Shown here one piece after another: positions 5,587 through 33,717 of a DNA stretch of 57,007 bases. The notes beneath the pieces are model-generated. The model saw only the letters and a program-made list of their open reading frames with translations. It was not told where the DNA came from and searched no databases. Origin of the DNA: a virus (taxonomy: Duplodnaviria; Caudoviricetes); the IMG/VR virus record IMGVR_UViG_3300043786_001636, positions 1 through 57,007 of that record; one strand, 5' to 3'. How positions within the stretch are numbered: the stretch's first letter is position 1; each line of letters opens with the position of its first letter. The position numbers were made by a program, and so were the translations under genes.

Positions 5587-6416
5587 ATTGCGGTTGTTGT
5601 CGAGTCGTAAGCGAAGGCGAAGTGATTGCCGCCATCAGCGGCACCGTTGCAGGCGGGTGGGCAACTGTTCTTCCAGGCTTCGGAAGCAGCTTTGAGGCCG
5701 ATGGCTTCCCTGATCCCCCCCCCGGCGGCGTGATCAGTGCCTATGCAATCACCCGGGTCTACCAGCAATACCGCACGAGCAACAACGAGTTAATCGGGGA
5801 GGTGGACGGCGTCCAAACGAATGGGACGATTGATCCCCTCCAAATTTGGCTCCCAAACGAATTCGGCGGATTCGACCAAATCAAAGCGCCTGGAGACCCG
5901 GAAATTGAAGAGACAGGCAACAATCCCACCAATGACGGGGAATTCTATTACGTTTACCTGCACGACCGCTGGGACACGGGAACCTGGACCACTGTTTCTA
6001 CAACCACAACCACAGAAACCGTTGCCATCGAAACGTCTGGCGGGCAAACCTACATCGACGAAGAGCGCCTCAACGGTGGACTGGTCTATCGCAAGGTTTG
6101 GGGGCCGATCATCGGGACCGTAGACCACGATGCAATCATGCAGACGCATGCCCATTTAGAGTTTCCTGTCCGCAACTTAACCAATGATTTCGATTGCGCT
6201 GGCGTAGACCTTGGCACCGTGCTTTCCGTGCATGACGAGGTTGCAAACGAAAGCGTTTTGCAAACTGTGGTCATGGACCAACAACAGGTCACCATACCGT
6301 TGCCGACCACCATGAGCGAGGAGGTCGATGGGGTTTCAGGCGCGCTGAACAATTGGGGTTTTGCTTCCCGCTCAATCAATCATTGCCGCAAACTGGGGGC
6401 GCCGGCAATCCTTTAA
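5583..6416 (+). CDS. Hypothetical acidic virion/tail protein
   Basis: Starts MNCGCC at ATG 5583, coupled to the upstream stop. Its end overlaps the giant gene's stop by 4 bp. Confidence 0.6.
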   Translation: MNCGCCRVVSEGEVIAAISGTVAGGWATVLPGFGSSFEADGFPDPPPGGVISAYAITRVYQQYRTSNNELIGEVDGVQTNGTIDPLQIWLPNEFGGFDQIKAPGDPEIEETGNNPTNDGEFYYVYLHDRWDTGTWTTVSTTTTTETVAIETSGGQTYIDEERLNGGLVYRKVWGPIIGTVDHDAIMQTHAHLEFPVRNLTNDFDCAGVDLGTVLSVHDEVANESVLQTVVMDQQQVTIPLPTTMSEEVDGVSGALNNWGFASRSINHCRKLGAPAIL

Positions 6417-9400
6417 TCTTCCAACGGCACCATGTATGCACCCGGCTTTACCGGAGGATTCTGGCCGGGCAACGGCAAATTGTAGCCGCCCTGTTGTTCT
6501 TCTGCCGCTTGTTGTTTGCGCAACCGCAACACCTCTGGCCAAATGTCGCGAATCGCAGTCTGCTTCATGGCCAACCATTCTTTTGTCAGCTTTTCGACGC
6601 TGGCCCGTTCCACCGGACTGATTTCCTTCAGGAAACGCGCCCGCCGATCCTCGCCCTTCTCACCCTTTTCTCCGCGCAAATTGCTCAATGGGTCGCGCGA
6701 ATCGATGATCTCGGCAAATTGTTTGGCCGTGAGAACGGCGTTTGGAGCTTTTCTGTCTTTGGCGCCGATCCGCCCCAGCGCATCAAGCTCGCGTTGCACG
6801 GCCCGAGGGTTGTTGTTCAGGATTGCCTGATAGATCCGTTGCCGAGCTCGCCCAATCCGATCCGTGTCGCCGCCTGGCTCTGGACCGAGGCCGATGCCGT
6901 TCCTCTGCGCCCAACGGTTGGCAATACGCCACACCTGCGGGGTTGCGTTGCGGATGTCGATGCCGGTCCAAGAGCGCAACACGTCGCCGCCTGCAGTGCG
7001 CTTGGCCATGGTGGACCGCTGGACGTTGCCCAAATCCATTCGTTGCGCCAAGTCCTTCAACGGCGATTGCGGCGGCAACAAATTCACGCCGAGGTCAGCA
7101 GTCCGAGGCACGGCGCCCGAACTCGTGATCGGCGCCGGCGCAAGGGTGTTGTAGAGCGCTTTCAAAATTGCGCCAGCTTGTTCCCACCAGCGCATCTCGG
7201 AATGGATCACCGGCTTGTCCGTGAACACGTCGCGGTTCATGAGCGTCGCGATTGCCATTGAGGTCATCGGGCTGGACAACCAACCGCGGCCCAGACGAAC
7301 CAGCATGGGGTCAGGTTCGCGCCCTTCCTCGACTCTCATGCCAACCGATGATGCGTATGGGTTGACGTTCGTCAGGTCGATTTGCTGCAGTTCTCCGTTC
7401 ACCACGAACGGCATCGACATGTAGAAATCAAGCGGGCCGAGTTTCTGGTGACCGCGCAATTCAGCTTGCACCGCTTCCTTGTCGTCGTCGTCGTAGCCCA
7501 GCAAAGTCAACCCGATGTGCGTCAGCAGCGTCGGCATTGCCATGTACTTCAAAAAAGTGGCGGGCCGGTAGCGAATGGCGTTGTTCGCGATCCGCATGGA
7601 TTCTGCGTAGAACGAGTAGAACGGCATGATCGTGCGCTTCAGAGTGCGCACCGTGCCGCTCTGGGCGACCTCGTCGTAGTAGGGAAACCATTGCCGCACG
7701 TATTCCGCGGCGGCTTTTGGCGAAAGCCCCGATTTCCGGGCTTTCACGTAGGCCGCAGCTTTGAACAGGGCGTCCTCAACTTGGTAGGCGTTGTTGACGT
7801 TCTCACGCAGTTTGCCCAAAACGGCTGCAAACCCGGTCAGATTGGGGCTAGGCCCCATCAGAGCTTGGATGGCGGTTGCAAATTCCTGCTGGCCGATGTC
7901 TGCCCCAAGCACGCCTTGGTCGTAAAGCTCGGCGTAGTTCACCGACCCGGCGGCCTGGCGTTTGACCACCAACGTCCAAGCGTCGCTGTAATACCCCCAG
8001 TTCGCGGGGCTCACCGGAGACACGCCGGCAAAGTCCGCAAACATGATGTTGCCGAGAATATTGCGCCCGTGTGTGGCCGGGTTCCAGACCGTTTTTCCTT
8101 CCTTCCACGCAGCCATCAACGCATCGTAAATCTTGACCGCATCATCCCCCGCTTTCGCCAAGGTGTAGAGGTCGCGTGCTAGGTTTTCCTCCACGTATTT
8201 TCCAGCAATTGCCCCGAGGGCTTTGTTGTCGCCCATGCGCACAAACCCGGGGCGCAACGTGTCGCTGACCAGTTCCGGGTTGACTGCCATTTTTGCAAAC
8301 ATTTGCGCAAGCGCAATGTCGTGGTCCATGACGCTGACGATTTTGCCGACAACGTAGCCCGGGTCGCGGATCAACCCCATTGCCGTCAATTCAGCGTCGG
8401 TCTTCGGCTCGATCAATTCGTATTCGTCAGCAATTTGCTGCCGCACGTTGCGGATCTGACTGCGCAATCCAATTTCCAAACGGTCGGCCTGTTTGACCAT
8501 GTTCGGCGTGATGTCCATTCGCCGAGCCGTCTGCTCATCGAGGAAATTGGCAAACCACGCATCGCGTTCAGCAGCGCTGTCAAAGCGCCATCTGCCGTCT
8601 GCGGAGTGCGGCACGGGTTTGGGTTTTGCGCCCGGGATCACCACGGCGTAAGCATCCGAGAGGCGCGCCATGGTGTATTCCAGGTTCATTTTGTTTTTGA
8701 GCATCTTCCGGTCGTTGTGCCGTTCCAACGCATCGCCGATGATCCCCATGAGCCCGTAGCGGTTGGCTTCATGCTTCAGGTAAAATCGCCGCAGGTAAGT
8801 TCCGAGACCTGCGGCGACTGTGGTTGGGTTGAGGATGCCCGCTTTGGCAGCCTGCCTTGACAAAACGTCGATGGTGCGGCGCGCGGCCTGCGCCACGGGC
8901 CGAGCCTCTGGCGGCACCGCAGCAATCGGAGCATCGCCAACGAGGTAATCGAAGATGGCACGCTGCGCGACTGGGTCTTGCGCAATGGCTTTCGGTAAAT
9001 GCAACCCCAATACCTCCGAAGTTCCGCCCTCGCGAAACAAACGCAGCCATTCTTTGCCGCGCATGTTTGCCCGGCTCATGCCGATGTTCGCCTCGCGTTG
9101 CGCCGCAACCGCTTCCGCTGCAACGCCCCAGTGCGGAATGAGTTCGGCGGGCGCCTTTTCCAACACCATCTTGGCGATGGGTCCGATCATGGGGATGCGC
9201 TCGACAATGTTTGCTGCGGTCTCCAAGCCTTTTGCAATGTTGCGCTGGATTTCCGGGTTTGCCGGGTCGGTCGAGGCCAACGCCGAGGAGATGACGCGGC
9301 CCGTCGTCTGGTTCAGCGCGCGCTCCAAGCCGATGCCGCCCATGCCGAGGGCGACTGGCGTTCTGAGGTTGGCTGCAAGAGTTTGCGCGTCGCGGGCTTC

Positions 9401-12400
9401 AATCTCGCCTGCGTAGGCGCGCAGTGCGCCCCCCTGTGAGGCGCGGGATTCAGGGAAGCGGACGGAAAGTGGGATGACTTGGCCGGATTCGTCGCGGAGT
9501 ACCGGGTCGGCGGATTTGATTTGGTTAAGGGCAACAACGAGTAATGAATTGTGGGCCTTTCCAGAAGGTGATTCGTCATCAAATTCAAGCGCATCAAAAC
9601 CCGACGCAATAACCTTCTTTTGAATTGAAGAATAATTTACCGCCTCCGCGATATTGCCGCCAGCAGTGTTTTCCCAATCTACCCCGCGAACATCATCAAG
9701 ATTGGCGACCTTCCCATTAAAGTAAAAAGACTGCACAAGCCCATTGTCGGCGTCATTTGCGTAATCACGAGCTACATCAGTGTCATCCGTTAAAAAGATC
9801 GGCCTGTCTTGCCTTGCGATTTTTTCACCTCCATGAAACCATTTTACAAACCCCGCAGCCTTCGCCGCTGCATCCACCATCCGTTGCGCCGTCTCTAAAT
9901 CCCCACGCGCCACGGCATCCAAATATTCCCGATCCGCGTCAGTAAGGCCGATAGGTTCCAAGTCGCTGGACCTGAGGACATTCCTTTGCTTCACTGCATC
10001 TGCCAGCCAGTTTTCTGCCTCATCAATTGCGTTTGCGACGCTTTCCAGAGGCATTTGTTTTTCGGTCAAAAAGTAAGCGTCTAAAAACCCATGAACCTGT
10101 TGCCATTTTTCGGTGGGTTCATGGTCGCGCACACTGAACCGAAACCTGTTTGCGTCCGAATCATCTCCAGCTTGGTCGAAATACCCCTCGCCGTAGAGAC
10201 TTTGCGAACGCCTGAAATCCCCTAATTGCCCTTGTCCGCTGGTATCAAAAGAAAACCCGTGAACTCCTGGCGGAACCACAAAAGTGTCTTTCAACTCCCA
10301 AAGCGATTGCTCCCAAGAGCTTTCATCTTTAAAATTTTCGTCCCTTTTTGCTGTGTTAACTTCGTCCTCAACGTATGCCGCCGCCTCTCTGAACGTATCG
10401 GCGATCCCTTCAAATTCTTCAGATCCGACTGACCCATAGTATCCGAAACGATTTCCATCTTCAAAAATCGTCAACCAATCCCCGTCGCGAGTGCGAGCGT
10501 TCCAATATCCTTCATCGTCCCCATTTTCCCATTTCAGCGACCCAAAACTGGCATTTTCGTTTTCTTTGCTTTGCTCAACAATCCTTGATCGCTCTTGCTG
10601 CGCTTCTTTTTTGGCAGCATAAAAAGCATTCCATGCCCGGTCCGCGTCAGTGAGGCCGCCCTGCGGAGTCGGTGAATTCTGGGCGGCCCCGTCGCCGGTA
10701 GCCATGCCGCCACTTTGTGCTGATGGCACAAAATTGTCAAGGCCCGTCGGTTCCGCATTGCTGGACCTGAGGATGGAGTCACTGCTCAGGTCGAACCGCT
10801 GGCTCAACGGCACGCCCGTGGAGGCTGCGGCACTCTTGATCTGGTTCGGTCGCAGCACAGCCACGCTGTCCGTCATCGTTCCGTCGGCCTCAAGCTCTGA
10901 TTCGTTGCGGTAGATCAACCCGTCGTAGCCAACAGCTTCAAGCGCGCCTTGCATCCCGCGCAGCGTCCCGTCATGTGCAATGCCCTGCCGAGTCAATTCA
11001 GGGCCAAGCGTTTCCTCCGTCCACGAGCCAAGGTCCGGCACCCGCAGAGGGTTGCGCAGGTCAAGGAAATACCGGGCCGTGTTGCGTTCGCGCTCCTCGG
11101 CCAGCCTGCGGTTTTCGCGGGCTGCGTTTGGCCCAAAAGCGAGCGTCACGCCTTTGGCGATCTGCCGAGACTCCGCTTGGCCTTTAGTGCCGAAATGAAT
11201 TCCGAGTTCCCCCGGATTTGCACGGAAGACGTCGAAACTTCCGGTCTTCGGCGAGTAATGGTAGCCTTCGCGCAAGCCTCGTTGCTTCGCCACCTCGTTC
11301 ACCAAGCGTTGCGCGGTGGCCAGGTCGCCCCGGTTGACCGCTTCCATGTGCGCTGCGTCCGCTCTTGCCGTATTTATCGGTGACGGCGCGGCTTCGCTGG
11401 CGTACAAAATGTTGCTTTTGCCGTTGGCGTCCACGTCGGGTAAACTCTCATCCAATGAGATCCTCTTATTCCGCAGATATGTGGACCGCTCTTTACGTTT
11501 TGAATTGGCGGTATTCGCCACGGAGGTGCGGCGATTTTCAGCTTCGACGCGCGTTTTGCGAACTAGCCGGTCGATGGCTTTGGCCGGGTCTGTGTCCGGC
11601 CCAACGAGTGTTCTTGCTGATAAGATTTTGCCAGTTCCAAGCAGAAGCAGTTCGCCGTAAGGGCGATGTTCGGCATCTGTGTCGATGGCCCCGATTGCTG
11701 CGATTTCCTCTGGGCGTATGTGGGCGGTCACCAATTCTGTTTGTGACCCCGGCTCGCGCACTAGGGGCATTGTTTGGCGACCAAGTGGCGCGTTGGCATC
11801 AGCGAAGGCAACGACGGACATCCCGCTCTCCAACTTGCGCTCCTTGAGGCCGCCTTTCATTGGCGGGGATTCCATATCCCGATTTCGGATTTTCAAGTCA
11901 AGGCCAACGATCCGACCTTGCTGTGCGCGGTTCTTGACGATTTGCTTGGCCAATTTTTCGCCAAGCACTGCCGGCAAATCTGCTGCTTTGTAACTTTGAT
12001 CAACCCTCCAGAGCGATGTGCCTGCGATTCTGAAAGCCACATTGACATTGTCGCCGCGCTTGCTCCAATCGACACCATCGACCTGGGTGCCAAAGTCTGG
12101 AACCCTGGCCCGCACCCCGATCACGGTCTGGTCGCCGTAGGCAGCGCGGAACATCGCTTGGTGAACCTCAATCGCAGCCATCAAAGCGCGACCGTTTTCG
12201 CCGTCTTCCTCGACCGCCTGATCCCAATCGGCGCGCACCTGTTGAATGAAATTTCGACCGCGGAACCACCGTGCAAAGAGATCTTTGGCCCAAGCCACGG
12301 CGGACGGGTCAATTCCTCGTTGTTGCGCGAGCCTGTCCAATTCGCGGTCGCGCAAGGCCACGACTGAGTCTCCCTGTCCATGCTGCGCTCCTGCGATGCG

Positions 12401-15400
12401 CGTTGACTCCTCAGCGGTAAAAGCCGCAGCCGACTCGGCGCTGCTGCGCTTAATCGGGGTTGCGCCAGATGCGCGGAGGATGGAGTCAGATTCGGGGTTG
12501 AAGCGCTCGTCTAGAGGGACTCCCGTGAAGGCGTCGGCGGATTTGATTTGGTTAAGGGCAACAACGAGTAATGAATTGTGGGCCTTTCCAGAAGGTGATT
12601 CGTCACTAAATAAAAGCGCATCAAAACCCGACGCAATAACCTTCTTTTGAATTGAAGAATAATTTACCGCCTCCGCGATATTGCCGCCAGCAGTGTTTTC
12701 CCAATCTACCCCGCGAACATCATGAAGATTGGCGACCTTCCCATTAAAGTAAAAAGACTGCACCAGCCCATTGTCGGCGTCATTTGCGTAATCACGAGCT
12801 ACATCAGTGTCATCCGTTAAAAAGATCGGCCTGTCTTGCCTTGCGATTTTTTCACCTCCATGAAACCATTTTACAAACCCTACGGAATACCCCGCAGCCT
12901 TCGCCGCCTTCTCCACCAAAGCCTCCGCCTCTTTGCGCTCCGCCTCGGTGATCGTCCCGGCGTTGTGCTTCGCCTCAAGCTCCGCGTGCCGCGCAGACAT
13001 GGCGGGCTCGGCGCTGCTGGCGCGAAGGGTTTGCAGCGCGTCAAGATTCACCACGGCAACCTCTTTACCCATGGCAATCGCATCGTATCCGGCCTCGCGC
13101 AGCGCTTGATTCAACCGCTCAGGGTATTGACCTCCCCGGGTAATCTCAAATGGCGCGATACCTGACGGAACCCTTTCAATGGCGTCCGCAGTGAGCCGAT
13201 AACGCTGACCGGCATCTGGCAAGATCGCATCGAGTTGATCCGCCACTTGGCGCAACCTGTCGATTTCTGCTTGATCCGTCTCGTCGATCTGCAACAATTG
13301 AGGGTTCGCCGCGACAAAGTCCTTCCACTCTTTTGAAAGTTTGCGCGGGTCTTTCTCCGTAGTCGATACATTCAAATCCGATGCCACATCAAGCATCCGC
13401 TCAGGGATCTCAGCAGCGACCACGCGCACGCCGCGCAACGGAACCCCGCGAGTCTGCATGAAAAGCGATGCGTCCGTTGCTTGTTGCGGGCCGCGCCAGA
13501 AATAGGCCACGCCCCCAATGTATCCTCTGTTCCCCGAGGTTTGACCGATTGATTTCTCCGAAAACGTGTCGAACTCCCGATCAGTGCCGTGACTCATCCT
13601 GCGCTCAATCGGGATGGCGGCAGATGCTTTTAGGTTCGACAGCGCTTCGATTGCTTTCTTTGTTGCGCTGTCAGTGACCTCAATGCCCTCTTGTCGCACG
13701 AGCAACGCGATGCGCTGGGCGTGATCTCCGAGGAGCTCTCGGGAATCGTCGGCGTTGTTGACGCCGTTGATGCCCTCCATGCGGTTGGTCCCGGTGTGGA
13801 GTCGGATCCCTCCGATGGTCTTGTTGCCCGTCGGCGGGAGGAGGAGCCAGTAATCGACGCGCGAGAGGTAGTCGCGGGCCATGCTTTCGCCGTTGGTGCA
13901 CCAGCTATCGGGGCTGAGCGCCATCAGGGCTTTCACGGCGTCATCCTCTATGGATGGCACTTCTTCGAATCCGATCTTGTTTAGTTCTTCGTCAACAAGG
14001 ACCGACGCTGCTGCGTTGGCCGCAGACTCCTTGTCTGAATATGTATTACCAAGATCATAGGTCTCCCATCTGGTATGACGAAAAACCCACTGCCCTTGGT
14101 ATTCCGCGATAAAGTCTTGAGCCTCTTCCTCTGTGTCGAAGGTCTTGACGGCTTCATCGCCGTCGGGGTCTGCGGACGAGTTGACCGTAAACCCAAAATC
14201 ATCCTCTTCGGCGTAGAACAAATCAGACACCTGAGCCACTTCGATTTCGGAAAAATCCAAATACCCTTCGATCACATCACGGGCCTTATACTCAGCTTCT
14301 ACGCGATCCGATCCAACGACCTTGCTCCCGTCGGCAAAAGTCACGAACACAGAGGTGCCTGAATTCTTATTCCCCGGCACGAACACCCACCGATGCCCGT
14401 CGCCCGCCTTGATCGTGCGCAAGCCCTTCGTCGCCGCCTTGGCCCGCTCCTCGTCGTAGATGGCTAACGGCGACAGCCCGGGCTCACTCCCTGTCGATTG
14501 CAAGGGAGTCCGGGTTCGCGCGTTGGGTGGGTATTTTGCATCGTAGGCAGCCGCGATCTCCAGCTTCTTCGCACTGGGATTTGACTGCTTGAAGCTGCGA
14601 GCAAAAACGCGAAATGGCGGGCGGGATGTGTCGGTGTAGCTTTCAAGAGGGATCACCTCATCTGCATCCGTCTCATCTGCAATCACCTTGTCCGAATTCT
14701 TTCGGATTTCCTCCATGGTGGATTCAAGGACTTCCGGGTTCAATTCGCGAGGCCGCCCGAACCCATGGTTGTCGCGGGCGCCGATGCTGTGTTCGAGAAT
14801 GTCCCACGCTAGGTTGCGGGCGTATGGGTCGGTGATCTCGCGAATCTTGCCGCGCAATTCCTCAAGCTTGGCGATCTTTTGGGCGAAGTATGCGTCACCC
14901 CATCCCTTTGGACGTTCGGCCATTTCTGCCGCCAGCTTCGCCTCTTCTGCGCGAAGCTTCGCGACCTCGCCCTGCGAATCGTCGAGCATGTTCGCCCACG
15001 CCTCCGCCGCCTCGCGCCTCGGGCGGTTGACGTTCTGCTCCACCCACGCTTGCCATCCTGCTTCCGTAGTGACCAATCCTTCGCCCTTTGAGCGAGCCAA
15101 TTCCGCACGCTCATATTCAGCGTAGGCGTCTTCAAATCGCGTCCACGCCTCGTTTGTCCCAAGTCGTTGCGCTTCAGCCTCAAGCCGTTCGTGTTTTCGC
15201 TTCAACGCGGCAATCGCCCTAAGTTCGGCCTGTTCTCGCGCGATTGATTCGGCGTCCGGAGTGTGCAAAAGGTCCAGCGTATTGCGCCCCTCGGCAATCC
15301 CATACTTGACTTGCTTCTCAGCCGCCGCACGCACTGCTGGCTCCAAATGACGGACGTCTTCCGGGTCAACTTGAAAACGGTTCTGCGAACGGCGTTGAAA

Positions 15401-18400
15401 CTCCGCCTCGGCGAATGCGTCAAGGTCCGCCCGGGTCTTGATCTTCAGCGTGTTGATCCGTCCCCGGCGTCGGCTCAGGAACGCAAAGACGAAGGGCTCG
15501 CTTTGACGGTCCACGTTAAAGCGTCGGGCCATAGCCGAGGGAACCGCCGCGCTGGCTCCGAGGGTGTCGTTCTCTGGCGGCGTGACCGGGTCGGCTTGCG
15601 GCGGGGTGAAAGACTGCTCGGATGGGGTGGTCAGTCCCCCAGAACGTGCGATTCCTTGTCGAACTCCAGATCGTACGCTTCCCTTAGCGTCAGCTTTCTT
15701 CCCATCAGCTTTTCCAGATACGGAAGGCTTTCCTGAAGGGCGCGGACCACTTCCGGCGTCAAATCGAGCCCACTCAGGGTGTCGGATTCCGAGGCCGATG
15801 ATTTGTTGGCGGGTGGATTCGGCATCAGTAGAATTTGCCCACATTTGTGTGACTTGTCCAACGAATGCTTTGGAGCGTTTCAAGTCGTCGGTAAAGAGTC
15901 CACGGACTGCCTCCCAAGTGACCGACTGCATTTGGCGCGGCATAATCCCACGTTCTTCGGCGGCTTGCCGGTAAGCTTCGTGGAACATCCAGTAGATGCC
16001 TGAGTTCCCGCCGCCAGCGACACCGGCATCACCGAAGCTCAACCCGACCAAGTATCCTTTGTTGCCCATAGGATACAACGCCGATGCGTTGACTGCGTGC
16101 GTGTCGATTGTGGCATCGCCAGCAGGGCTGTTTGGGGCGATGATGTTGTTGTAGAAATTGCGGATTTTATGCTCGTTACCCAGTGTCGCCGAGATGTTTT
16201 CCGGTGATCCGTCGTAGGCGACGGAAAGCCCCTTGAGGATGAAAACGTCAGCCTGCCAAACCATCTTCTTAGTGCTTCCGTCGAGGTTCCGGCGCAATCC
16301 TAGGTTTTCTCCTTCTGGGGAAAGGACTTGGTGTTCCAGACCGTGGAAGTGCTGTGAGAGCAGGCGGGTCGCTACTGCGGCGAGGCGTTTGTCGACAAGA
16401 TCGCCGGATGCCCACAGATCGTCGATAGAACGACCCTCCAGTAGCTTGAACTCCTTGCGCCGCTTGGCTGCGTCTTGCGCCGAGTCAAGCATGCCGCGCA
16501 TCGTCTTGCTGAACTGCTTTCGCGTGATTACGACGTCACGGTGATTGGCGAAAACATCCGCCATTCTCTGCGCCATAGCGACATTCTGAAACCAATCTTT
16601 CATTGGTGACAGCACCGCCATGATTCCAGCAGCCTGCTCGTTTGTGATGCCGTTATCGGACGCAATCGACTCTGCGATCAGTCGCGCCCCATCATACCAA
16701 TGTGTTGACCGCACCGTCAGGTTGTGACCCAACGTGTCGAACGCATCGTAAAGAGCAAGGATGTTGCCCTTAAAGAAATCGATGAGGACGTCACGACGAG
16801 TTTCTGGGTCGGTGCTCTCCATCAAATAGGACGGCAAAGGAACGTCATCAACAAAGTGCGTGATTTTGGGCATTTGCTTCGCTAGACCTGCGGCATTCAC
16901 GGAGTGAATGCCGTCGTTGGTGTCGCGGGTTGTCGGCTTGACCTTGCCTTGCCATGCGGTGCCAACTCGACTGAAATCGTGCCTGCCGCTCGGGCGACTG
17001 ATCGGGGTGTTTGCATTAAGGGTTGGCACGGCGGCGGACGCCATCAACATCTCGTTTTCGGGCGGCGTTACCGGGTCGGCTTGCGGCGGGGTGAAGGATT
17101 GCTCGGATGGAGCAAACGTATCCTTGCCTGCATCGACAAGAAGCGCCATCGCTCGCGGATTGTCGCGATTCTTGAGTAGAACAGATTGCGCCGCTAGGGT
17201 GATCTGGTCGGCCTGCATTTGTTGCGACAACGGGATCCCCTTGTCCGCCTCGCGTTTGATAAACGCTCGCGCTTTTTGGACTGCATCCCGTAAACCTTGC
17301 GGGTCTAGTTCGCGTGCAAGGGCGATGATGGCCGGGGCCGTGATCGGTTGCGAAGGAGTTGCGCCGGATGCGTTGAGCGTCTCGTTCTGCCCGTCTTCCT
17401 TCGGCTTCGGCGCGGTGAAGGATTGCTCGGATGGGGTCAGTAGGTCGCCCTGTCCGGCCTCGCGGTCGATTTCGGATTGAGTCCGGGAATCGGGTTCAAC
17501 GAACTCCGTCCCTCGCGTGTTCTGTCCCGTGAGTCGGAATCCTGAGTCCTGCCCGGTGGCGTCCAAGAAATCCTTGTCACGGAAGTCGATTGGCTTTGCG
17601 GGAGTCTCACCCTTGAGTTCCGCAATGGTCGCCGGATCGCCGTAGAATCGTTGAAACCGGGCTTTGTCGGATTCAAGAGATTCAATCCGGGATTGCACCG
17701 CTGCCGGGTCGCGAACGTCCACCCCTAGCTTACGGGCGGCTTCCGGGTTGCGCGCCGCGCCTTTGACCGCGCGGATCTGTTCGTCAATCTCGCGAATCCG
17801 TTTCTGCGATTCTTTGACTAGCGCCACCGCGCTGTTGAGGTTTGCGTCATCGAACCCGAACATGTCGCCCTGCTGGCCTTGTTCGTTCGTGTTCCGAGTC
17901 GCTCGGATCAACTGCGTGAGGGCTTCCGGGGAGAGTTCCCCAGCGTAGCGAAGCCCGACCGCTTGGAGCGCGGCATCGCCCGGAGCGGCTTCAGCTATTG
18001 CGGCGGCTTTGGCGTCCGCGATTCGTCCTGCTGAATGGAGAGCGTAGAGATCAGGGCTGCCGTCTCGGCCAATCGCGAAGCCGGAGCGTCCTTTAGCCCT
18101 TGCAAGAAGACCGCGCGCCACCGCTTCCTCGCGCGTGATTCCTGCGGCTCGGAAGTAAGTTGCGAAGTCGGAGATTGAGCCTTTTTCATCTCGGATATTA
18201 AGCTCAGCGTCTAAGATTTGCGCGTCAAATTTCGTGAATCCATCCGATTCGTTAAAAATTTGCGTCGGGATCGTCTTTTCGCCGTTGCGGCGGAACAAAT
18301 CCAACCGATGCCGCCCGCTGATGACCTCCACGTCCCCGTTGAGCCTGCGCCACGCAATCACTGGTCCCAGTCCGCGCCGATCCACTTTGCCTTCCAATCG

Positions 18401-21400
18401 TTCACCGCGAACGACGCCGGTTTCCGGGTCTGCATTCTCTTTGAAGTTGGGGACGTCCTTCGACAGCTTGAGTTTTGCGACTGGGAACTCAGGCTCAAAT
18501 TCAAACTCAAACGCAACCGCGGTCGCAACATCAGCAACATCAGCAACATCAGCAACATCAGCAACATCAGGCGCAGCGATCAACATCTCTTTCATGGTCG
18601 CGTCCACGTTGCTCACGAAACGCTCCAATGCGATAGACGTCACAACGTCCTCCGCGCTCAGGTCGCGCAACAAGCGGTTCAGCGCCGCCTTTACCCACCG
18701 CAGGATTTTGCTGAAGACCAAGCGCAGTTCCGATTGGCGAATCAAATCCTCTGAAATTTGCCCGCCTGGAATCCTGCCTTCTACCACCATGCGCACCAAT
18801 TCCGATGCCATGTGGAAATCCGTGGCCAATCCTGCGGCGATAGCAGCTTGTTTTGCTTCCTTGGTCTGAAAGTATTCTTTGTTGACCAAAGTTTGCAGCT
18901 TGCGCCCGGCCTCGCTCTTGCCCAATTCGGACCAAACTGCCGCGACTTGCTCTTGCGTGAATTCGCCCTTTGCAATGGCGCGAATCATCGCGTGGTGGAT
19001 GAACTCATGGCGCACGGTTTGCGCCACGTAATCGCGGCGCCCACGTTCCAACTGAGACAAAATAACGCCTCGGTGCAGCACCAACGCCTGCTGCTTCATG
19101 TCGTATTCCATCGGCGGCCCGGTTTTTTCATCGGTCACCACAACTTTTGGAAACGACCGCAACATCGGCGCGACTTCTGGTGCCACTTGCGCCAACCACG
19201 CAATCTGCGCCTCGTTTGGCGATGGCTGCGTTTGCGTTGCTGCAGGAGCAATTTGCTCTTCGACGATGCTCGTGCCTTTAGCAATCGTTGCGCCCTCTCG
19301 CGCAAAAGCCGCAGCAACGTCCTCGTTCGATTGTTGCTCTGCGTAGTCTTTCGTCAGCGTGCGCCCGTCATTGGTCTGAATGGTGTAGCGGAATACCGCC
19401 GCATCCTCCGAGGAAGATGCGGCGGCGTCCTGCCGCCCTTGGCTTTGCGCTTCAGGAGTGCCCACCCCTGAAATTCCAGAAACATTTTCCTGCGCCCTCG
19501 TTTGCGCAGTGGCGCGATTGCCATCCCAGTCGCGCGCTTGTTGCTCAGTCATGGCGCTAAGTTGCGCCACTGCTGGCGACGTTTGCTGCAACCAGGCTAG
19601 GCCAGCGTCGGTGACGATGTTTGCCGTTTGGCCAGCTTCCAAAAACGGCGTATTGATGACGGCTTGCACCGCGCCTATCGCCGCCATTTCCGCTTCTGTG
19701 GCCTGCCCGCCATTGAGGATGCGACCGAGCCCGCGGGCCGCTGCGCGATTCTGTTGCCCTTCTCGGGCGGCTTGCATCTGCGGCGACGCTTCTACGTCCT
19801 GCGGTGCGATCCCTGCCTCCAAAGCCTGCTGGCGAGCCTCTGTGATGGCAGTCACGTCCAAAACCGGATCGGTCTCCTGCGCAGCAGCAACAATCGCCCG
19901 CGCCCGGTCTTGCGTGCGCTGCACCGCCTCGGCAACACTGCGCTCAAAATTCGCAGGGTCATTCAACAAAGCGACTGCGGCCAGCGCCTCGTCGCCGTCG
20001 CGGCTTTGGCCAAACATGCTTTCTGCACGTTGTAACGCTTCCTGCGTTACACCGAGTTCATTTGCCAGACGCGCAGGAGCGATGCGTTGCGCGAGCTCCA
20101 TGTTTGCCCGCAGCACTCGCACCATCGGCTCATTGCTTTCTTCAAGAAGCTTGCGCTGCGCCGTTTGCGCTGCCGGCGTCGTCAAATCCAGACGCGCTTG
20201 ATTGTTGGCGAGGTATTCAAATCGCGATGCTGCGTTTTTGATCTTCGCCGCCCGCGCTGCGATCTGCGGCGTGTAACCGGCGGCAACGAGTTGCTCTGCT
20301 GAGGCTTCAGCCACGGTCGGCAACGAGGCCGCCAGTGCTGCTTTCAGATTCGGGTCTGCGACGTTGTTGAGATCGAAAGTTCCGCGCCCGAGGGCATCAG
20401 CCCTGCGCCCACTGCCGTAGACCATCGGCCCGGACATCATCAATATGCCCATGAGCATTTGCGGGGTCATAGCCACAAACTGCTTCATGTCCGATTGAAA
20501 CCGCGCGCCGATGTCGCCGCGGTCAGCCCCAAACAATTCGGCCACAAGGTCGGCTCCGTAGGGCGTCACCTGTTGCACGACTTCCTCAAGGTATTCTTCC
20601 CCGATCCGCAGGCCGAGGCGGCGACCGAACGAAGCCATGGGTCGCACGCCCACGCGAGCCATGCGAGCCGCAAGCGCTCCTCCCGCGGGGCCTAAACCAA
20701 CTTTGAGCGCTTTGCCCAAAAACCTTTCCACGGCGCCCTGCACCGTGCCGACGAGCACCGCATCCACCAGTTTCTCGGTTGCGGTCATTCGGCGGTATGG
20801 GGGCGGGTTCTCCCCGTTCGCAACTGCCGCGCGATGCTTCAGTTGGTTGTCGCCCTCGATTTGTTGGAGTTGATCTAAACGCTCCCCAGCAAAAGCTGCA
20901 GCCATAAGCGGCACGCCGGCAAAGGGAATGGCGCCGAGACCCATGTAGGGCGCCGAATCGATGACGACTTTGGAGCTTTTCTCAAGGAACCCTTCCGTGG
21001 GCTTGATGAATTTGTCCGCAAACGATCCTTTTGTCGGTTCCCACAAGCGTCCAGTCTGCAGCGCCGAAGGACTCCATTCGCCTTGCTGCAAGTCTTTCAA
21101 GCCCCGAATGAACATGTCGTCCAATGACGCTTGTTTCGCTTGTCTCTGTATGGCTTCGGCTTCCGCTGGCGTGGCCTTGCGCTTGGCGGAGCCTGTGCCG
21201 TAATTGCCCCAAGTGGAACTCATGGGCAATTTGGGCGCGTTTTCGTCATCGACCCACAAAGTCCCGCCTTCCAGCACTTGATCGCGGACTGGTTGTTCAG
21301 CAGCGAGTTGCAACTGACTCAGCACGTTGCCGATGGCGTTTTCGGCGTCGGTCACAACACCTTTGGCGGATTGTTCGGTCTGGCCAAACTCGCCCGCCAA

Positions 21401-24705: not shown

Positions 24706-25074
24706 ATGAAAACAGAATTCGCCGACGAAACGCAGCGTGATCTTCACAACGAGATCAATGCCCTCAAGACGTCGTTGCTGGAGACAAAGCGACAGCTTTA
24801 CGCGCACAGCAAATTGATCATGGAGGCCCTTGAGCTTCAGCGACAAATCGATTTGCTAAAAACCGTCATTCGTGATCTCCGCAACAACGGCACTGCAACA
24901 ATTGTCTGGATCAAGGCTGCGGACGCAGCCCTCCTTGGCGGAGGCATTAGCCTGAACCAGTTGCGCTCTGACAGGCGCAACGGCATCATCCCGCTGCACG
25001 GTTGGCGCAAGAAAAATAGCCGCGTCTACGAATACCGGCAGGACATCATTTGTTCCCTGTTCCTTCACCCGTGA
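24706..25074 (+). CDS. Coiled-coil plus HTH-like DNA-binding protein (regulator or alternative small terminase)
   Basis: Heptad-like N-terminus and a C-terminal WIKAADAA..ISLNQLRSDRRNG winged-helix-like motif. Its stop overlaps the GTG of terL. Confidence 0.5.
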   Translation: MKTEFADETQRDLHNEINALKTSLLETKRQLYAHSKLIMEALELQRQIDLLKTVIRDLRNNGTATIVWIKAADAALLGGGISLNQLRSDRRNGIIPLHGWRKKNSRVYEYRQDIICSLFLHP

Positions 25075-26891
25075 GCATTTCGCGCAGTTTTCGTGCGTTG
25101 CTGCAGCAGGCTGTCCGCGGTCCCTACGGTTGCCGCGCATGGATCGCCCAGCACGCATGGATTCTGAACAAGGACGGCGAGCTTGAACGATTCGCTCCAA
25201 ACCCGTTGCAGTCGCGCATCTTGGAAGCGCTAGAATTATGCTTGGCGAATAACTGGCCCGTGCGGATTCTCGGCCTAAAGAAGCGCCAAGGCGGTCTCAC
25301 TACGGTGTGCGCTGCGATTCAGTATTGGTTGCTGAACGTCCGCACCACGAACGCCATGGTGATGGGCGGTCTCAAATGGCAATCGGGGAACGTCTGGAAA
25401 TACATCCGTTTTTTCAAGGACCACGACACGTTCGATTGGGGCAACACGTTCAAGTTGGGCGAGGAAATCGGCGCGGTGTCCAATGGGTCTGCTTTGCAGA
25501 AAGGAACCGCTAAACAACCGGAAAGCTGCCGATCTGCAGCGCTGCGCTCCCTGCACTGCACCGAGGTTGCGCGGTGGGCCACCGACGGCGTGGCGAACGC
25601 CGAGCGCATCCTCACGGGCGCCATGGCTTCATTGCCGAAACTCCCGTGGACGTTTGCGATCTGGGAATCGACCGCCGCCGGGCCGACCGGGATGTTCTAC
25701 AAACGCTGGTCTAAAGCGTTGTCCCTTGAGGAAGTCAAAGCCGGACGGAAACCGCGGCCTGGTCAATTCATCAAGGTTTTTGCCGGGTGGCACGAACATG
25801 AAGACAGCCGGCTGTCGATGACCCCCGACGAGCGATCCGAGTTTGAGCGATCGCTCTCCGAGGAAGAACGAGCCTTGATGAATCGGTTTGACCTCAGCTT
25901 GGAACACCTGTTTTTTCGCAGGGTGACCATCGAAGAAGAGTGCAACGGCGACCCGCAAATTTTCAAGCGGGAATACCCGTTCACGCCAGAGGAGGCGTTT
26001 TCGGCGTCCTCCGCTAGTTTCTTCCCCAGCGCAGGTCTGGCGCACCTTCGCAAGCTGGCCGAGGCCGCCGAGCCCGAGCGGCGCGACGTGTTGCTGCACC
26101 GCGAAAACGCATCAGACCGGGTGCTGGCGCTGCCGGTCGAGGCAAAACAGGCTACGGTTTGGATTTATGAACCGCCCTCCCCCGGAAGCGCATACCATAT
26201 TTCGGCTGATTTCATGGAGGGGCTCGCTGCAGACGAAAAGGGGGATGACCGAGACCACCATGTCGTGCAAGTCTGGCGGGGCGGGTTCTTCGCCGCCGAC
26301 GGGCGGTGGCGCCCGCCTAGGGAGGTAGCCCGAACGGTGAAGCCATGCCGCTTCGCGCCAGACATCGTCGAGGATCTCATTGAGAACCTTGCCGCCTATT
26401 ACGGTGACTGTTTGGTCATCCCTGAAAACAACCGGGACGACGGAATCATCCGCAACCTGGTCAACCGCAACGTGCGCGTCTTTCAGGCTACGGTAGGCGT
26501 GGACGAACGAGGAGATGCCGTGACTGCGCGCCCCTCGGGCCGTTACGGTTTCCGCACCACCGGCGGTGACGGAGAGAGCAGTCGCAAAACCATTCTCAAC
26601 GAGCTTGCTGCTGCCGTCCGTCAATTCACTGACGCTGGCAACGGAGTGGAACTCACGCTGACCACGGTCGAGGAAATGGAGGTCTTTTGCCGCAATTTGC
26701 GCGGCAAGCCGGAGGCGATTGCCGGCCACCATGACGACAGCGTCATCGCTGCCGCCATCGGGTTTTTTTTCCGTGACCTCGGAACGCGCTACACGCCGCG
26801 AAAACACGATTTGGCAGCGTTCCTCAGCAACGATCCGCTTTTGCGCAGACAGCAATCACCGCAGCGCGTCGGTGGTGCGTTCGGGTTGTGA
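25071..26891 (+). CDS. terL: Terminase large subunit
   Basis: PNPLQ adenine-binding motif, Walker A LKKRQGGLTT, Walker B LHCTE, coupling motif EST, nuclease SAD, IPENN and HHDDSVIAAAI. Confidence 0.92.
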   Translation: MSISRSFRALLQQAVRGPYGCRAWIAQHAWILNKDGELERFAPNPLQSRILEALELCLANNWPVRILGLKKRQGGLTTVCAAIQYWLLNVRTTNAMVMGGLKWQSGNVWKYIRFFKDHDTFDWGNTFKLGEEIGAVSNGSALQKGTAKQPESCRSAALRSLHCTEVARWATDGVANAERILTGAMASLPKLPWTFAIWESTAAGPTGMFYKRWSKALSLEEVKAGRKPRPGQFIKVFAGWHEHEDSRLSMTPDERSEFERSLSEEERALMNRFDLSLEHLFFRRVTIEEECNGDPQIFKREYPFTPEEAFSASSASFFPSAGLAHLRKLAEAAEPERRDVLLHRENASDRVLALPVEAKQATVWIYEPPSPGSAYHISADFMEGLAADEKGDDRDHHVVQVWRGGFFAADGRWRPPREVARTVKPCRFAPDIVEDLIENLAAYYGDCLVIPENNRDDGIIRNLVNRNVRVFQATVGVDERGDAVTARPSGRYGFRTTGGDGESSRKTILNELAAAVRQFTDAGNGVELTLTTVEEMEVFCRNLRGKPEAIAGHHDDSVIAAAIGFFFRDLGTRYTPRKHDLAAFLSNDPLLRRQQSPQRVGGAFGL

Positions 26892-31124: not shown

Positions 31125-31359
31125 GTTGCTGGTCAAGCACGTCAAGTTGTCCCGGCGCCCATTGCACGACCCAGAGCAAAGCGTCCCGTCGCGCCCGCAG
31201 AGCGGGGACTTCCTCCGGTTTGCAATGCTCTAAAAGAGCGTTTTCGATGGTGCCGATGGCGGCGTCCAACGCTTCCTGCAGACGAGCGTAACCTGGCGTG
31301 GCCACGAACTTCGTGAGGTCGTCGTGTCGCTTTGCGTCTTCGGGCGTGAATCGGTTCAT
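31087..31359 (-). CDS. Small helical protein downstream of portal
   Basis: 90 aa, coupled to the portal stop, at a position typical of podovirus head operons. Confidence 0.6.
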   Translation of the reverse strand: MNRFTPEDAKRHDDLTKFVATPGYARLQEALDAAIGTIENALLEHCKPEEVPALRARRDALLWVVQWAPGQLDVLDQQLSRPGGNSRTLI

Positions 31360-33530
31360 ACGCTGGGCTCCACCGCCATGAGGGGTGATGTGACCGGCGC
31401 AGACGGCAACGGAGCTCCCTGCGGCGGGATAGGTGCCGATTGCTCAAGCAGTTCGATTGCCATTTCGGCGTTCGGCGTTTCAAACAGTCGCAATTGCCGC
31501 AACGTCAGCGCTCGGATCGCCGCTTTGACTTCGGGTGGTTGCGCCGCAAAATCTTTGAGCATGGCAATGGCCGCGAGGTTTTGCTGGCTCTGCGCCTCGG
31601 CCCGGAACCGGCTGATTTCGAGGCGCAAATCGAAATCGAATTCCTCGACATTCGCTCGCTCAATGGTTGCCACGGCCACCTCGTTGCCGGCCAGGTAACG
31701 GAAGGTTTCTTTTTCGTCCATGTTCTGCAGCAGCAATTTTATCGCGGTGTGCGTGGCGGCTTCAATGCCTTCGGAGAGTTGGGCAATGAACGGAGCGAAC
31801 TGTTCTTGGTTGGACCGCTCAAGGTGCCGAATGCCAGTGGCCAAATTAGCGGTCTCAAGGCCGGCCATCTGCGCGTCGTTGCTGCTGCTGACGCCTGACA
31901 TGTTCGTCATCATTTGCGTGAGGAACTCAATCATTGCCTGCAGGTTGTTCTGCTTTATGTCAACGATGGGTGTCGCCGTGAACCCGACTTTGCCAGTCGA
32001 GTTTGGCAAACGAGTGTAAACGTGCCCTCCGTTTAAAGCCACGTTGACCGGGTTGGGCTGGCCCTCGAAGTCGCGGTAGACCGACGGGTCCATTTCGTAG
32101 AAGTAGCCGCTGCGCTGGTTGCTCAGGTTGATCCGGTTGAACTGCAGATCGATGCTGCTGTTGAGTTGCCAGCAATCCTCCACCGCCGATTGACCGTGCC
32201 AGCGGTTGTCCACCGGATTGACGCGCACGCAGTGGAACGGTCTGCCGGGGGCGTAGTTGGCGAGGTAATCGTAGAAGATTGGGCGCATGTTCGCCTTGTC
32301 TAAGAGCACGACGATGTTCTGGGTCTGCCCGCGGCCCAGCGCGTCGTAATGCAAGTAGCACTCGGCGATTTCCATGTTCGGTTCCACCGTCAAAGAACTG
32401 TCGTTGGAGGAGACCTGCCCGCTGTAGCCTGGGCTGTAAGTGATTTCGCCCAGGTCGGCCCGGGGAGATCGCTCCGCCGTCCATTGCCTTCTTTGGCCGC
32501 CTTGGTTGCGCAACAATTCGATGATCTTGGGGAGGTTGTCGGCTTGCCCGCTGCGCTGCAAATGCGCCATGTACTCGCCAGCCACGTCAATTGCGGGACG
32601 CGAATAGAGGTGCGCGATGAATTTGGCATCGTCAATGCTGCGTTCGCGCGGGCTGAGAAGGACGTCCTTGTAATTGGGAATTGCGAGGTCAAGCCCGTTA
32701 AATTGGATTTTTTCGCGGTGGATCAGGCGGTAATCAAACACCAGGTTGGCCTCGTCGCCTTCCGCCCAGTTTGGCAAGGCCGTTGTTGTTGACCGGCTCA
32801 AAACCCGGTAGGTCTGTGTCTCGTCCCATTCCCAGTAATCGCTTGGGAAAATGTAATCGCCGTCATCTGCCACGAGGGGTTCGCCATCCACGTCAATGGC
32901 GACCTCGGCGTATTGCTGGTAGTATTCCGATTGCTTGCGCCAGGTAGACTTGACCAAGGCTTCGCCGCGGATAAAAGCGAAAGCGATTGCTTGCGCCAGA
33001 ATGGGTTGAATTTTGGCACGGTTAAAGGCCCATTTGGTCCAGTCGTCCACCAGACGCGCAGTCTCCGCGTCATCTGCGCCTGCAGGAGAGATCGTATACC
33101 ACGGGTCGGTGCCAAAAAAATACCCCTGCGCCCGGGAAATCTGCTGCTTCACGATCCGGTGCGAAAGAGGAATGTGTATGTTGCTCTCTCGGAAAATGGG
33201 CGCCGAGAATTGCCGCCACTCAAGCTGCATCGCGTAGATCATGTCCCACTTTTCTCTTTTCCCGAAAAAGGAATTCATGGGGTCTTGCTCCTGATTGTCC
33301 GTGCTTGACGCATGCTGGCGCCACCAACCTGGTTCGTTGACAATGTTGCGACCCATCTCCGCTTCCAGACCGGCGATTTGCTGGCCGATGTGGAGCATGA
33401 GTTGGTCTTCCTGTTCTCGCGTGAGTTCCAGCGCTGAGGCGAACACGGTGCGGGGCGCGTCTGGCGGCAAGGAAACCTCTAGTCGGCCAGGCAGGGTTGA
33501 CAGGAACGCGTCAAGTTGGTTGCTTTTCAT
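31356..33530 (-). CDS. Portal protein
   Basis: About 724 aa. FFGTDPW, IRGEALVKSTW, RWHGQS and MSGVS..MAG..LATGI motifs of P22/N4-like portals. Confidence 0.85.
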   Translation of the reverse strand: MKSNQLDAFLSTLPGRLEVSLPPDAPRTVFASALELTREQEDQLMLHIGQQIAGLEAEMGRNIVNEPGWWRQHASSTDNQEQDPMNSFFGKREKWDMIYAMQLEWRQFSAPIFRESNIHIPLSHRIVKQQISRAQGYFFGTDPWYTISPAGADDAETARLVDDWTKWAFNRAKIQPILAQAIAFAFIRGEALVKSTWRKQSEYYQQYAEVAIDVDGEPLVADDGDYIFPSDYWEWDETQTYRVLSRSTTTALPNWAEGDEANLVFDYRLIHREKIQFNGLDLAIPNYKDVLLSPRERSIDDAKFIAHLYSRPAIDVAGEYMAHLQRSGQADNLPKIIELLRNQGGQRRQWTAERSPRADLGEITYSPGYSGQVSSNDSSLTVEPNMEIAECYLHYDALGRGQTQNIVVLLDKANMRPIFYDYLANYAPGRPFHCVRVNPVDNRWHGQSAVEDCWQLNSSIDLQFNRINLSNQRSGYFYEMDPSVYRDFEGQPNPVNVALNGGHVYTRLPNSTGKVGFTATPIVDIKQNNLQAMIEFLTQMMTNMSGVSSSNDAQMAGLETANLATGIRHLERSNQEQFAPFIAQLSEGIEAATHTAIKLLLQNMDEKETFRYLAGNEVAVATIERANVEEFDFDLRLEISRFRAEAQSQQNLAAIAMLKDFAAQPPEVKAAIRALTLRQLRLFETPNAEMAIELLEQSAPIPPQGAPLPSAPVTSPLMAVEPSV

Positions 33531-33717
33531 TGCGCAGGAAGGATTCAATGGCTTGCGCGGCTTTCAAGGCTCGCCTGTAAGCTCGGCCTCGATTGCCGTG
33601 CGCGCTGTCGCCGAAAAACAACCGCAGCCGTTTGCCTTGCCGAGCAAAAGCAACTTGGTAGCCGTGTGGCCCGCGGATGACATGGCTGAATGTGCGCACC
33701 GATGGGTTTCTTGGCAT
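33511..33717 (-). CDS. Small AP2-like DNA-binding protein
   Basis: GYQVAFARQGKRLRLFFGDSAHGNRGRAYRRA resembles the AP2/integrase-type three-stranded DNA-binding fold. Confidence 0.55.
   Translation of the reverse strand: MPRNPSVRTFSHVIRGPHGYQVAFARQGKRLRLFFGDSAHGNRGRAYRRALKAAQAIESFLRNEKQPT

Follow-up and report, generated by a model that had tools for sequence, protein, structure and literature searches.

The window analysed here is the whole of IMG/VR virus record IMGVR_UViG_3300043786_001636 (Duplodnaviria; Caudoviricetes), a complete genome of 57,007 bp with terminal repeats, and 29% of it is taken up by a single open reading frame (ORF; 6413..23152, minus strand) encoding a protein of 5,579 amino acids (aa), called the giant protein below. 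The giant ORF comes last in the structural module, downstream of the portal gene and on its strand. The central 2,660 residues of its product are composed of nine cassettes (c1 to c9), each preceded by an 11-residue junction peptide, between an N-terminal and a C-terminal block that are both free of the motif (Table 1). The core of the peptide, L-x-[AS]-S-x3-P, occurs nine times between aa 1926 and 4400 and nowhere else in the protein; the nine instances listed in a preliminary description of this DNA, made from the letters alone, were all recovered, each within about 17 nucleotides (nt) of the place given. The in-frame cassette array proposed in that description holds, in that relatives differ by whole cassettes at the motif, whereas the DNA microhomology said to join the cassettes proved not to be general.

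Table 1. Features of the giant gene and of assigned genes around it, in window coordinates (PSSM, position-specific scoring matrix).
Feature	Position	Strand	Remarks
N-terminal block, aa 1-1925, motif-free	17378..23152	-	coiled-coil-like Q/E/K/A-rich start, hydrophobic segment, HExxH domain
HExxH...E domain, candidate embedded metallopeptidase, aa 1280-1520	18593..19315	-	HEFIH at aa 1382, 18995-19009
Junction 1, LNASGATP, aa 1926	17354..17377	-	between N-terminal block and c1
c1, aa 1926-2035, 110 aa, no assigned function	17048..17377	-	homolog in P0004, absent from P0002
Junction 2, LMASAAVP, aa 2036	17024..17047	-	
c2, aa 2036-2530, DUF7178	15563..17047	-	PF23802 91.5 bits, cut-off 27 (gathering score reached)
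59-nt repeat, codes Pro-rich pre-linker PSEQSFTPPQADPVTPPEN	15567-15625 / 17052-17110		92% identity
Junction 3, LGASAAVP, aa 2531	15539..15562	-	
c3, aa 2531-3173, 643 aa, no family found	13634..15562	-	
Junction 4, LKASAAIP, aa 3174	13610..13633	-	
c4, aa 3174-3375, possibly ART-PolyVal-like (lead only)	13028..13633	-	no Pfam match
Junction 5, LRASSAEP, aa 3376	13004..13027	-	
c5, aa 3376-3558, ART-PolyVal copy A	12479..13027	-	PF18760 E 2.4e-6, 28.8 bits
Junction 6, LRASGATP, aa 3559	12455..12478	-	
c6, aa 3559-3915, no assigned function	11408..12478	-	
Junction 7, LYASEAAP, aa 3916	11384..11407	-	
c7, aa 3916-4127, divergent ART-PolyVal-like	10772..11407	-	PF18760 E 3.5e-5, 25.0 bits
Junction 8, LRSSNAEP, aa 4128	10748..10771	-	
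c8, aa 4128-4392, no assigned function	9977..10771	-	lowest cassette GC: 0.504, GC at third codon positions (GC3) 0.49
Junction 9, LRSSDLEP, aa 4393, weakest instance	9953..9976	-	PSSM 17.0; shuffle 95th percentile 12.7, shuffle maximum 18.8
c9, aa 4393-4576, ART-PolyVal copy B	9425..9976	-	PF18760 21.2 bits; 78.9% identical to c5
Degenerate junction, LRAYAGEI, aa 4577	9401..9424	-	below PSSM threshold
C-terminal block, aa 4585-5579, motif-free	6416..9400	-	shared with P0003 (58.5% identity), P0043 (33%)
Large terminase (TerL)	25050-26891		
Portal, P22/SU10 type	31356-33548	-	PF23899, E 9.6e-20
RecT/Bet-like single-strand annealing protein	38196-39023	+	phrog_2780, E 3e-44
RecE-like exonuclease VIII	38963-40162	+	phrog_412, E 2.1e-21
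PAPS reductase	41609-42415	+	phrog_424, E 1e-48

Recurrence of the junction peptide and content of the cassettes

A word-indexed search limited to proteins of 3,068-9,764 aa retrieved 41 giant homologs of the protein. The motif is present in nine copies in P0002 and in seven copies each in P0003 and P0004, the three closest of these giants, and in 0 or 1 copy in the other 38. When the residues of the whole giant protein were shuffled, the mean number of motifs was 0.23 and the maximum 4 in 2000 shuffles, against the 9 seen, and shuffles of the central 2,680 aa gave a mean of 0.10 and a maximum of 2; the frequency of the motif goes beyond that expected of Ala/Ser-rich sequence. Since the pattern was defined post hoc, all gapped 8-mers were also counted blind. 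The pattern L.AS.A.P came out on top, with 7 copies seen vs 0.022 expected and a statistic of 33.3, to be compared with at most 15.6 across 12 shuffles. The same pattern ranked first in each of the four motif-bearing proteins (P0001 to P0004, with 7, 9, 6 and 7 copies, respectively, each above all 12 shuffles). The 32 instances of the motif in these four proteins lead to the consensus [N/D/S]-[E/S/D]-[I/T]-L-[K/R/N/Q]-A-S-[G/A]-A-[V/E/T]-P (positions -3 to +7), and a PSSM built from them found no further sites in the giant protein. The 20 residues upstream of the motif are made up to 65% of P/E/S/D/N/G/T/Q/K, compared with 51% overall, a composition that fits a linker and suggests a junction peptide within an otherwise variable linker. 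The AlphaFold 2 (AF2) prediction of c5 with both its junctions, based on 4 alignment rows, had a mean predicted local distance difference test score (pLDDT) of 44.3, which makes it unusable and uninformative on disorder of the motif.

Its domain content makes the giant protein a member of the polyvalent proteins as defined by Iyer et al. 2017 (PMC5512222): DUF7178 and ART-PolyVal matches are found in it, and its 41 giant homologs include proteins with LPD-type domains. Among these homologs, PF18760 is present in 27 and PF23802 in 38, several carry LPD families such as PF18857, and for one the NCBI name is 'LPD38 domain-containing protein'. The giant protein has the many domains in one polypeptide, the signature ART-PolyVal domain and the gene position among virion and packaging genes that characterize the class, whose members are described as having 2-15 domains, as being mosaic and as being delivered with the DNA (PMC5512222). 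Taken singly, c5, c7 and c9 match PF18760 below its 31.2-bit cut-off (E 2.4e-6 to 5.3e-4), and the C-terminal 2,021-aa piece matches it above (40.8 bits); these E-values indicate relatedness, and the three cassettes are probably divergent ART-PolyVal members. For c4, a protein-language-model search gave a score of 0.94 to clusters in which 22-35% of the members carry PF18760. The c3 cassette is common to P0002, P0003 and P0004, with 44-79% identity per aligned block.

The other profile searches assigned little. With PHROGs, all ten pieces of the protein gave unnamed families only, for c2 and c7, and NCBIfam gave nothing meaningful on seven pieces. No family was found for the N-terminal block in Pfam, PHROG or NCBIfam, nor for the C-terminal block in Pfam or NCBIfam, and no locus related to the C-terminal block was found in IMG/VR. 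In megablast and tblastn searches against GenBank phages the central region, c4-c8, the ART region and the C-terminal block were all without match. The DUF7178 cassette had tblastn matches in six GenBank phage records: three from marine and unclassified phages, with the best identity (36.3%), and three short ones in Microbacterium phages. Some cassettes are richer in AT than the rest, as had been noticed before: the GC content is 0.504 in c8, 0.524 in c9 and 0.528 in c5, against 0.56-0.62 in the other cassettes.

Two features of the N-terminal block may be mentioned here. The segment aa 737-755 (20888-20944, minus strand) is the sole strongly hydrophobic 19-residue window in the 5,579 aa (Kyte-Doolittle 1.69) and could be membrane-inserting, as expected of an ejection protein. 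Just after the HExxH domain, a 9-nt perfect tandem repeat (GCAACATCA, five copies on the plus strand, 18524-18568) codes for (DVA)5 at aa 1529-1543; contigs from two other metagenomes (X3 and X4, see below) end or go loose at 18533-18570, so the copy number may differ from one population to another, or the repeat may just break assemblies. An impression of a ParB-like region at aa ~1560-1640 found no support, a phmmer search of aa 1530-1720 against the PDB giving nothing usable.

Cassette breakpoints and conservation at the amino-acid level

BLASTP comparisons among the four motif-bearing proteins gave 53 high-scoring segment pairs (HSPs) with 212 endpoints, 55 of which lie at most 12 aa from a motif centre, against 8.7 expected (random placement reached a maximum of 21 in 2000 trials). 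With the central regions only, 47 of 166 endpoints were near a motif vs 11.6 expected, and the breakpoints between homologues do coincide with the motif, the relation on which the cassette proposal had been made to depend. The four proteins were then cut at the motifs and the pieces compared pairwise. The c2 cassette aligns with c2 of P0002 over residues 1-494 of 495 at 97.8% identity and is absent from P0004; c1 corresponds end to end to c2 of P0004 (1-110 of 110 vs 1-133 of 133) and c5 to c6 of P0003 (1-183 of 183 vs 1-252 of 252), and two HSPs jointly span the whole of both c6 and c1 of P0003. The order of the cassettes, c1-c2-c3 in this phage, is c2-c3 in P0002 and c1-like-c3 in P0004, and in P0003 a c3-like part is directly followed by a c6-like cassette while a c5-like cassette comes last, before the C-terminal block. 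Residue by residue, the alignment with P0002 is unrelated before the motif and about 98% identical from the residue past the Pro through c2; beyond c2, identity is lower and patchy in c3, and past the next motif there is no similarity. At the level of sequence comparison, these data show that whole cassettes have been gained, lost and reordered between relatives with breakpoints at the motif.

The giant gene is also covered by contigs of X3-X6, four additional metagenomes from lakes or freshwater, and the zero-difference contigs listed bridge 6 of the 9 junctions, a single one (X3 record 2, 9824-12562) bridging four. As these independent contigs cover the gene and bridge junctions, neither the length of the frame nor the order of the cassettes is due to a chimeric assembly of one dataset. 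No cassette deletion or swap at the motif was seen in the X3-X6 contigs, which, being contigs and not reads, lose rare variants. The sides of the joints in X3 measure only 21-30 nt, with 90% likeness, and these joints likely come from other organisms, and the lack of X4 cover at 12551-13108 proves nothing.

The same junctions could be read at the DNA level, as being mainly homology patches for in-frame cassette swaps by RecT/RecE, the peptide itself having no role. Several observations go in this direction. Indels and reordering of cassettes fall exactly at junctions, and the 50-bp repeat with synonymous differences previously placed at 15576/17061 is real and extends to 59 nt at 92% identity (Table 1). 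This pair brackets c2 exactly, with a spacing of 1485 nt (495 codons); its differences are synonymous since the encoded residues are identical, and a third copy, 61% identical, is present at 17376-17434. The DNA said to be shared at about 9964 and 10760 and at about 10769 and 12476 was found again as exact matches (GCTGGACCTGAGGA at 9965 and 10760, GAGGATGGAGTCA at 10769 and 12476), while the identity noted near 9932 and 10641 is real (26 nt, 88%, 9925-9950 and 10633-10658) but has offsets from the motif that do not match. Between this phage and that of P0002, whose own DNA is locus L006 by exact match, islands of 55-86 nt with 88-92% identity occur at junctions with at least one flank unrelated: 55 nt (91%) are common to the junction of the N-terminal block with c1 here and with c2 there, both flanks being unrelated, and 86 nt (88%) to the c1-c2 junction here and the c2-c3 junction there. 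In-register exact runs of at least 12 nt are shared by three of the 36 junction pairs (26, 14 and 13 nt), GC3 differs between the cassettes, from 0.49 in c8 to 0.72 in c7 (and also in the C-terminal block), and the phage does encode the Bet/RecT system claimed for it, with a RecT-like protein (phrog_2780) and a RecE-like exonuclease.

Nevertheless, a role of the junctions as mere DNA patches appears unlikely to us. The other 33 junction pairs share 3-8 nt in register, which does not agree with linker microhomologies as a common feature, and the peptide is the sole feature common to all nine junctions, written in differing codons. The invariant Ser is encoded by TCC or TCT at four junctions and by AGC at five, two families that no single synonymous step links; the Leu of the motif is encoded by CTC, TTG, CTA and CTT, and its Pro by all four codons. 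At third positions the junctions have a pairwise identity of 0.33, or of 0.375 if the conserved columns are taken by themselves. With Ser, Leu and Pro codons mixed in this way and third-position identity so low, the conserved item is the peptide and not the DNA. Furthermore, the clearest recent tract of conversion or duplication, a 300-nt direct repeat that the preliminary description had missed although it is the largest (9506-9805 in c9 and 12533-12832 in c5, 98% identical and 3027 nt, or 1009 codons, apart), corresponds to the duplicated ART core and is not bounded by motifs: it starts about 65 codons past one motif and stops about 18 codons short of the next, therefore the latest exchange within the gene took place without use of the motifs. 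The contigs of the four further metagenomes, without cassette deletion at the motif, also speak against the patches. Taken together, the comparisons show that the junction peptide is maintained by selection at the amino-acid level. Homologous recombination at the junctions is a plausible route of cassette movement, but leaves the retention of the residues unexplained.

A side observation concerns the 300-nt repeat. An X4 contig of 1,714 nt (depth 7.3) joins the left flank of the copy in c5 (12532) to the copy in c9 (from 9506) with its right flank, and so goes back by 3027 nt. Across the repeat this could be a junction of the tandem-duplication or circle type; the other possibility is an artefact of de Bruijn assembly.

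The junction peptide as a putative processing site

We propose that the junction peptide is a protease processing site that would free the effectors, a reading to which we give an even chance. It fits the conservation at the amino-acid level better than the DNA-microhomology reading does, and, by analogy with viral polyproteins, a processing site would most economically account for an 11-residue peptide being kept at every junction in a lineage-specific form. In-frame recombination at the junctions would be a by-product of such a site. In the mechanism envisaged, many effector domains would be made as one polypeptide, and the giant protein would travel in the head of a podovirus-like temperate phage and enter the host together with the DNA, as suggested by analogy with JC1 gp69 and phi24B gp47. 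The junction peptide would be recognised by a protease, which would split the polyprotein into separate effectors either inside the head or once injected; the cutter could be the embedded HExxH...E domain (aa ~1330-1500) or, just as well, a phage or host protease acting in trans. Every cassette would have to carry the same site, whence the junction DNA would be alike over ~40-90 nt in related phages, and this likeness would let RecT/RecE-type or host recombination move the cassettes in frame. Swappability would then be a consequence of the site and not its reason. As for the terms 'virion protein' and 'injected anti-host effectors' used in the preliminary description, we infer them from where the gene lies and from same-class relatives.

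The HExxH sequence reported in the giant protein is indeed present, as HEFIH, and belongs to a domain in which six sequences all share H103, E104, H107 and E172, the last being a Glu placed 68 residues further along. The AF2 model of this domain is confident (mean pLDDT 81.4) and has three strands followed by the HExxH helix. By jackhmmer the domain was found in all 4 motif-bearing giants and in none of the 38 others, and an exhaustive phmmer search of 1.84 billion representatives gave 6 matches, two of which are new giants, P0043 and P0045. The latter combines the domain with four copies of a variant peptide, L-x-A-T-E-R-P, and this fits a co-variation of domain and site. The weak matches of the domain in BFVD were consistently phage polyvalent proteins, 'lethal factor'-named proteins and a MuF-C domain protein. 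When the domain was modelled in complex with Zn and a junction peptide of 41 aa, the score was 0.01 (mark 0.32), which counts neither way. That the HExxH domain is a protease cutting in cis at the motif is a tentative suggestion.

A number of points weigh against processing at the motif or against this cutter. In this phage the junction that precedes the C-terminal block has degenerated to LRAYAGEI, where P0003 has, at the aligned position, the full motif LQSSGQEP; if the motif is the cut site, the last ART domain would stay joined to the C-terminal block in this phage. A six-frame scan of the window gave 21 matches to the motif, namely the nine junctions and 12 in short open frames (15-154 codons), and none in any assigned gene that would make another protein of the phage an extra substrate. 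The polyvalent proteins N4 vRNAP, ArdC and TraC1 are described as delivered uncleaved (PMC5512222). The HExxH domain has no match in Pfam, including its polyvalent-protein peptidase models, in PHROG or in NCBIfam, no sequence match in the PDB by phmmer, and nothing significant there by Foldseek (best E 0.48); its matches in BFVD have E-values of 0.02-0.05, none at or below 0.001. P0043 has the HExxH domain and the C-terminal block and no recurrent motif, P0007 has three copies of DSILR[AS]S and no HExxH anywhere, and P0005/6 and P0037 have junction peptides of their own and no HExxH. The co-occurrence of domain and motif is imperfect in these sequences and confounded with relatedness. Because P0043, P0007, P0005/6 and P0037 break the pairing, a zincin acting in cis is not favoured over a protease in trans, of phage or host origin, which is possible as well. 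Pfam found no prohead protease family among 10 further ORFs, including those of the structural module, and this is absence of evidence only.

Instead of being cut, the peptide could serve as a functional linker in a protein that stays one chain, for example in procapsid packaging, in keeping the protein unfolded for passage through the tail or in chaperone binding. This would agree with the amino-acid-level conservation in a linker context and with the delivery of some polyvalent proteins at full length (PMC5512222), and for phi24B gp47 a role as a single, very large ejection protein is discussed (10.64898/2026.04.10.717836). A handling signal, however, is not obviously needed at every domain boundary, and the peptide changes wholesale between lineages while the adjacent ART tail is conserved, with no partner known. 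We regard this explanation as improbable, to the same degree as that of the DNA patches.

Hitch-hiking, in which the motif would be the functionless conserved end of a few duplicated linker or domain families, is less probable still. Three junctions do have the pre-linker PSEQSFTPP... in common and two the ART tail ...IKSA..TGVPL..RF...SDSI, and ART-type cassettes have been duplicated, but the remaining four junctions, whose flanks are unrelated to either side, still have the motif. It is retained at 32 junctions in four proteins with mostly non-homologous cassettes, and the codons have diverged where the residues have not. Chance or composition, which could be thought of in a protein with 13.6% Ala residues, is already refuted by the shuffles and the blind count given above and by the recurrence of the motif in relatives.

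Other lineages, genome context and known systems

Processing at a junction peptide, if real here, may extend to other giants, in which the blind count found other peptides, each above all 12 shuffles: NYSI(G) five times in P0005, FSPxR five times in P0015 and four times in P0018, A[AP]EQRV five times in P0016, VSEQR five times in P0035, T[LS][YF]SPAD four times in P0042 and LxATERP four times in P0045. The flanks of these peptides are mostly unrelated to one another, and several of the peptides follow a conserved ART tail (...IKSA...F....D/S-I), at the same spot as L-R-A-S here. The generalisation that each lineage has its own recurrent junction peptide is preliminary: the breakpoint test covered the four L-x-[AS]-S-x3-P proteins, the other lineages rest on recurrence counts, and homologous domains that are repeated escape the control by shuffling, as with KSA..N.G in P0037, which is part of the ART tail itself. 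In P0002, c7 contains, within aa 3650-3925 (L006:15899-16726), an internal ART tail followed by DDIRYSY, a junction of other-lineage type (cf. DIRxSxR and DIR-FSPxR), which suggests a module imported with its former joint. Beyond this, we put forward as a speculative possibility that the polyvalent proteins of phages are genuine polyproteins obeying a 'cleavage grammar' specific to each lineage, in which a peptide matched to the protein's own protease would double as an in-frame recombination joint, making a kind of 'effector integron' within one ORF. If so, anti-defence modules would be shuffled between phages with the reading frame never broken.

The remainder of the 57,007-bp genome also includes assigned replication genes. 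The PAPS reductase gene adjoins the RecT/RecE-like module, a combination found in Bcep22-like podoviruses; tblastn found no similarity between the giant protein and these phages. Two separate genes of the integrase family (phrog_1) are present in this single phage genome of 57 kb, at 35491-36612 and 45430-46032, both on the plus strand. Two ORFs on the plus strand (355-1212 and 1216-1731) match the same region of the same profile, phrog_4368, and are apparent tandem paralogs, upstream of a minor-tail or tail-fiber-like gene (1731-2624).

The polyvalent class, its mosaicism and the idea of processing by a peptidase are already published. New, as far as the main texts of the literature searched reach, are the explicit junction peptide, its counterparts in other lineages, the breakpoints on the peptide and the rare HExxH family; a literal search for the junction peptides gave unrelated papers only among the matches listed, and no processing site for polyvalent proteins is named in these main texts. 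A named junction peptide turns the processing prediction of 2017 into a concrete and cheap experimental test. The motif is also a rule for dividing giant ORFs into functional units, many of which fall outside the known families and may have new anti-defence activities, and the exact in-frame exchange of cassettes between phages bears on the evolution of counter-defence repertoires.

Among known systems, the polyvalent proteins of Iyer et al., known from phages and from conjugative elements, come closest, being likewise giant, encoded in the late or virion module of phages, mosaic, and endowed with ART-PolyVal. An embedded zincin-like metallopeptidase, for which the HExxH domain is a candidate here, is common in the class without being universal. 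Embedded zincin peptidases were predicted there to release the domains, with an analogy drawn to the polyproteins of RNA viruses (PMC5512222). The main text of that article names no junction or cleavage motif ('linker' occurs 0 times and 'cleavage site' in the references only), whereas in the giant protein one lineage-specific peptide is found at every cassette boundary, a feature absent from the description as given in that text. Bcep22-like and 933W/phi24B-like podoviruses resemble this phage in that a very large gene ends the virion module (22% of the genome in JC1, 29% here). JC1 gp69, a 'DarB-like' protein of 4,515 aa whose gene represents 22% of the genome, was detected in the virion by mass spectrometry (PMC9144972), as was phi24B gp47, with 2,811 aa, LPD5/LPD1/LPD38 and a MuF-C peptidase domain, which is discussed as a single very large ejection protein (10.64898/2026.04.10.717836). 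The likeness to JC1-type phages extends to a RecT-type recombinase in the genome and, here, to the PAPS reductase and the P22/SU10-type portal, but the available text of the JC1 and phi24B papers reports no junction motif such as the one that recurs here. Neither the adenine methylase nor the SF2 helicase of the P1 DarB-type dyad was found by Pfam or NCBIfam in any part of the giant protein, which is therefore not a DarB homolog.

With the polyproteins that eukaryotic RNA viruses make, the giant protein has in common a short lineage-specific peptide that recurs at the junctions and a candidate protease in the same chain. There are no shared domains, the analogy is operational and cleavage here is putative; moreover, those polyproteins contain a fixed replication set, whereas the cassettes here would be accessory effectors varying between close relatives. 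A last comparison is with the polymorphic toxins of bacteria, although no CdiA/Rhs-type family was found in the Pfam scans of the giant protein. In CdiA (VENN) and Rhs (PxxxxDPxGL), a short conserved peptide associated with processing bounds a variable module and lies at recombination breakpoints, and these proteins, which bacteria secrete and which are provided with carrier repeats and a secretion domain, have one C-terminal variable tip each. Here, in contrast, up to nine junctions follow one another in tandem inside a giant phage protein, and the resemblance is functional only.

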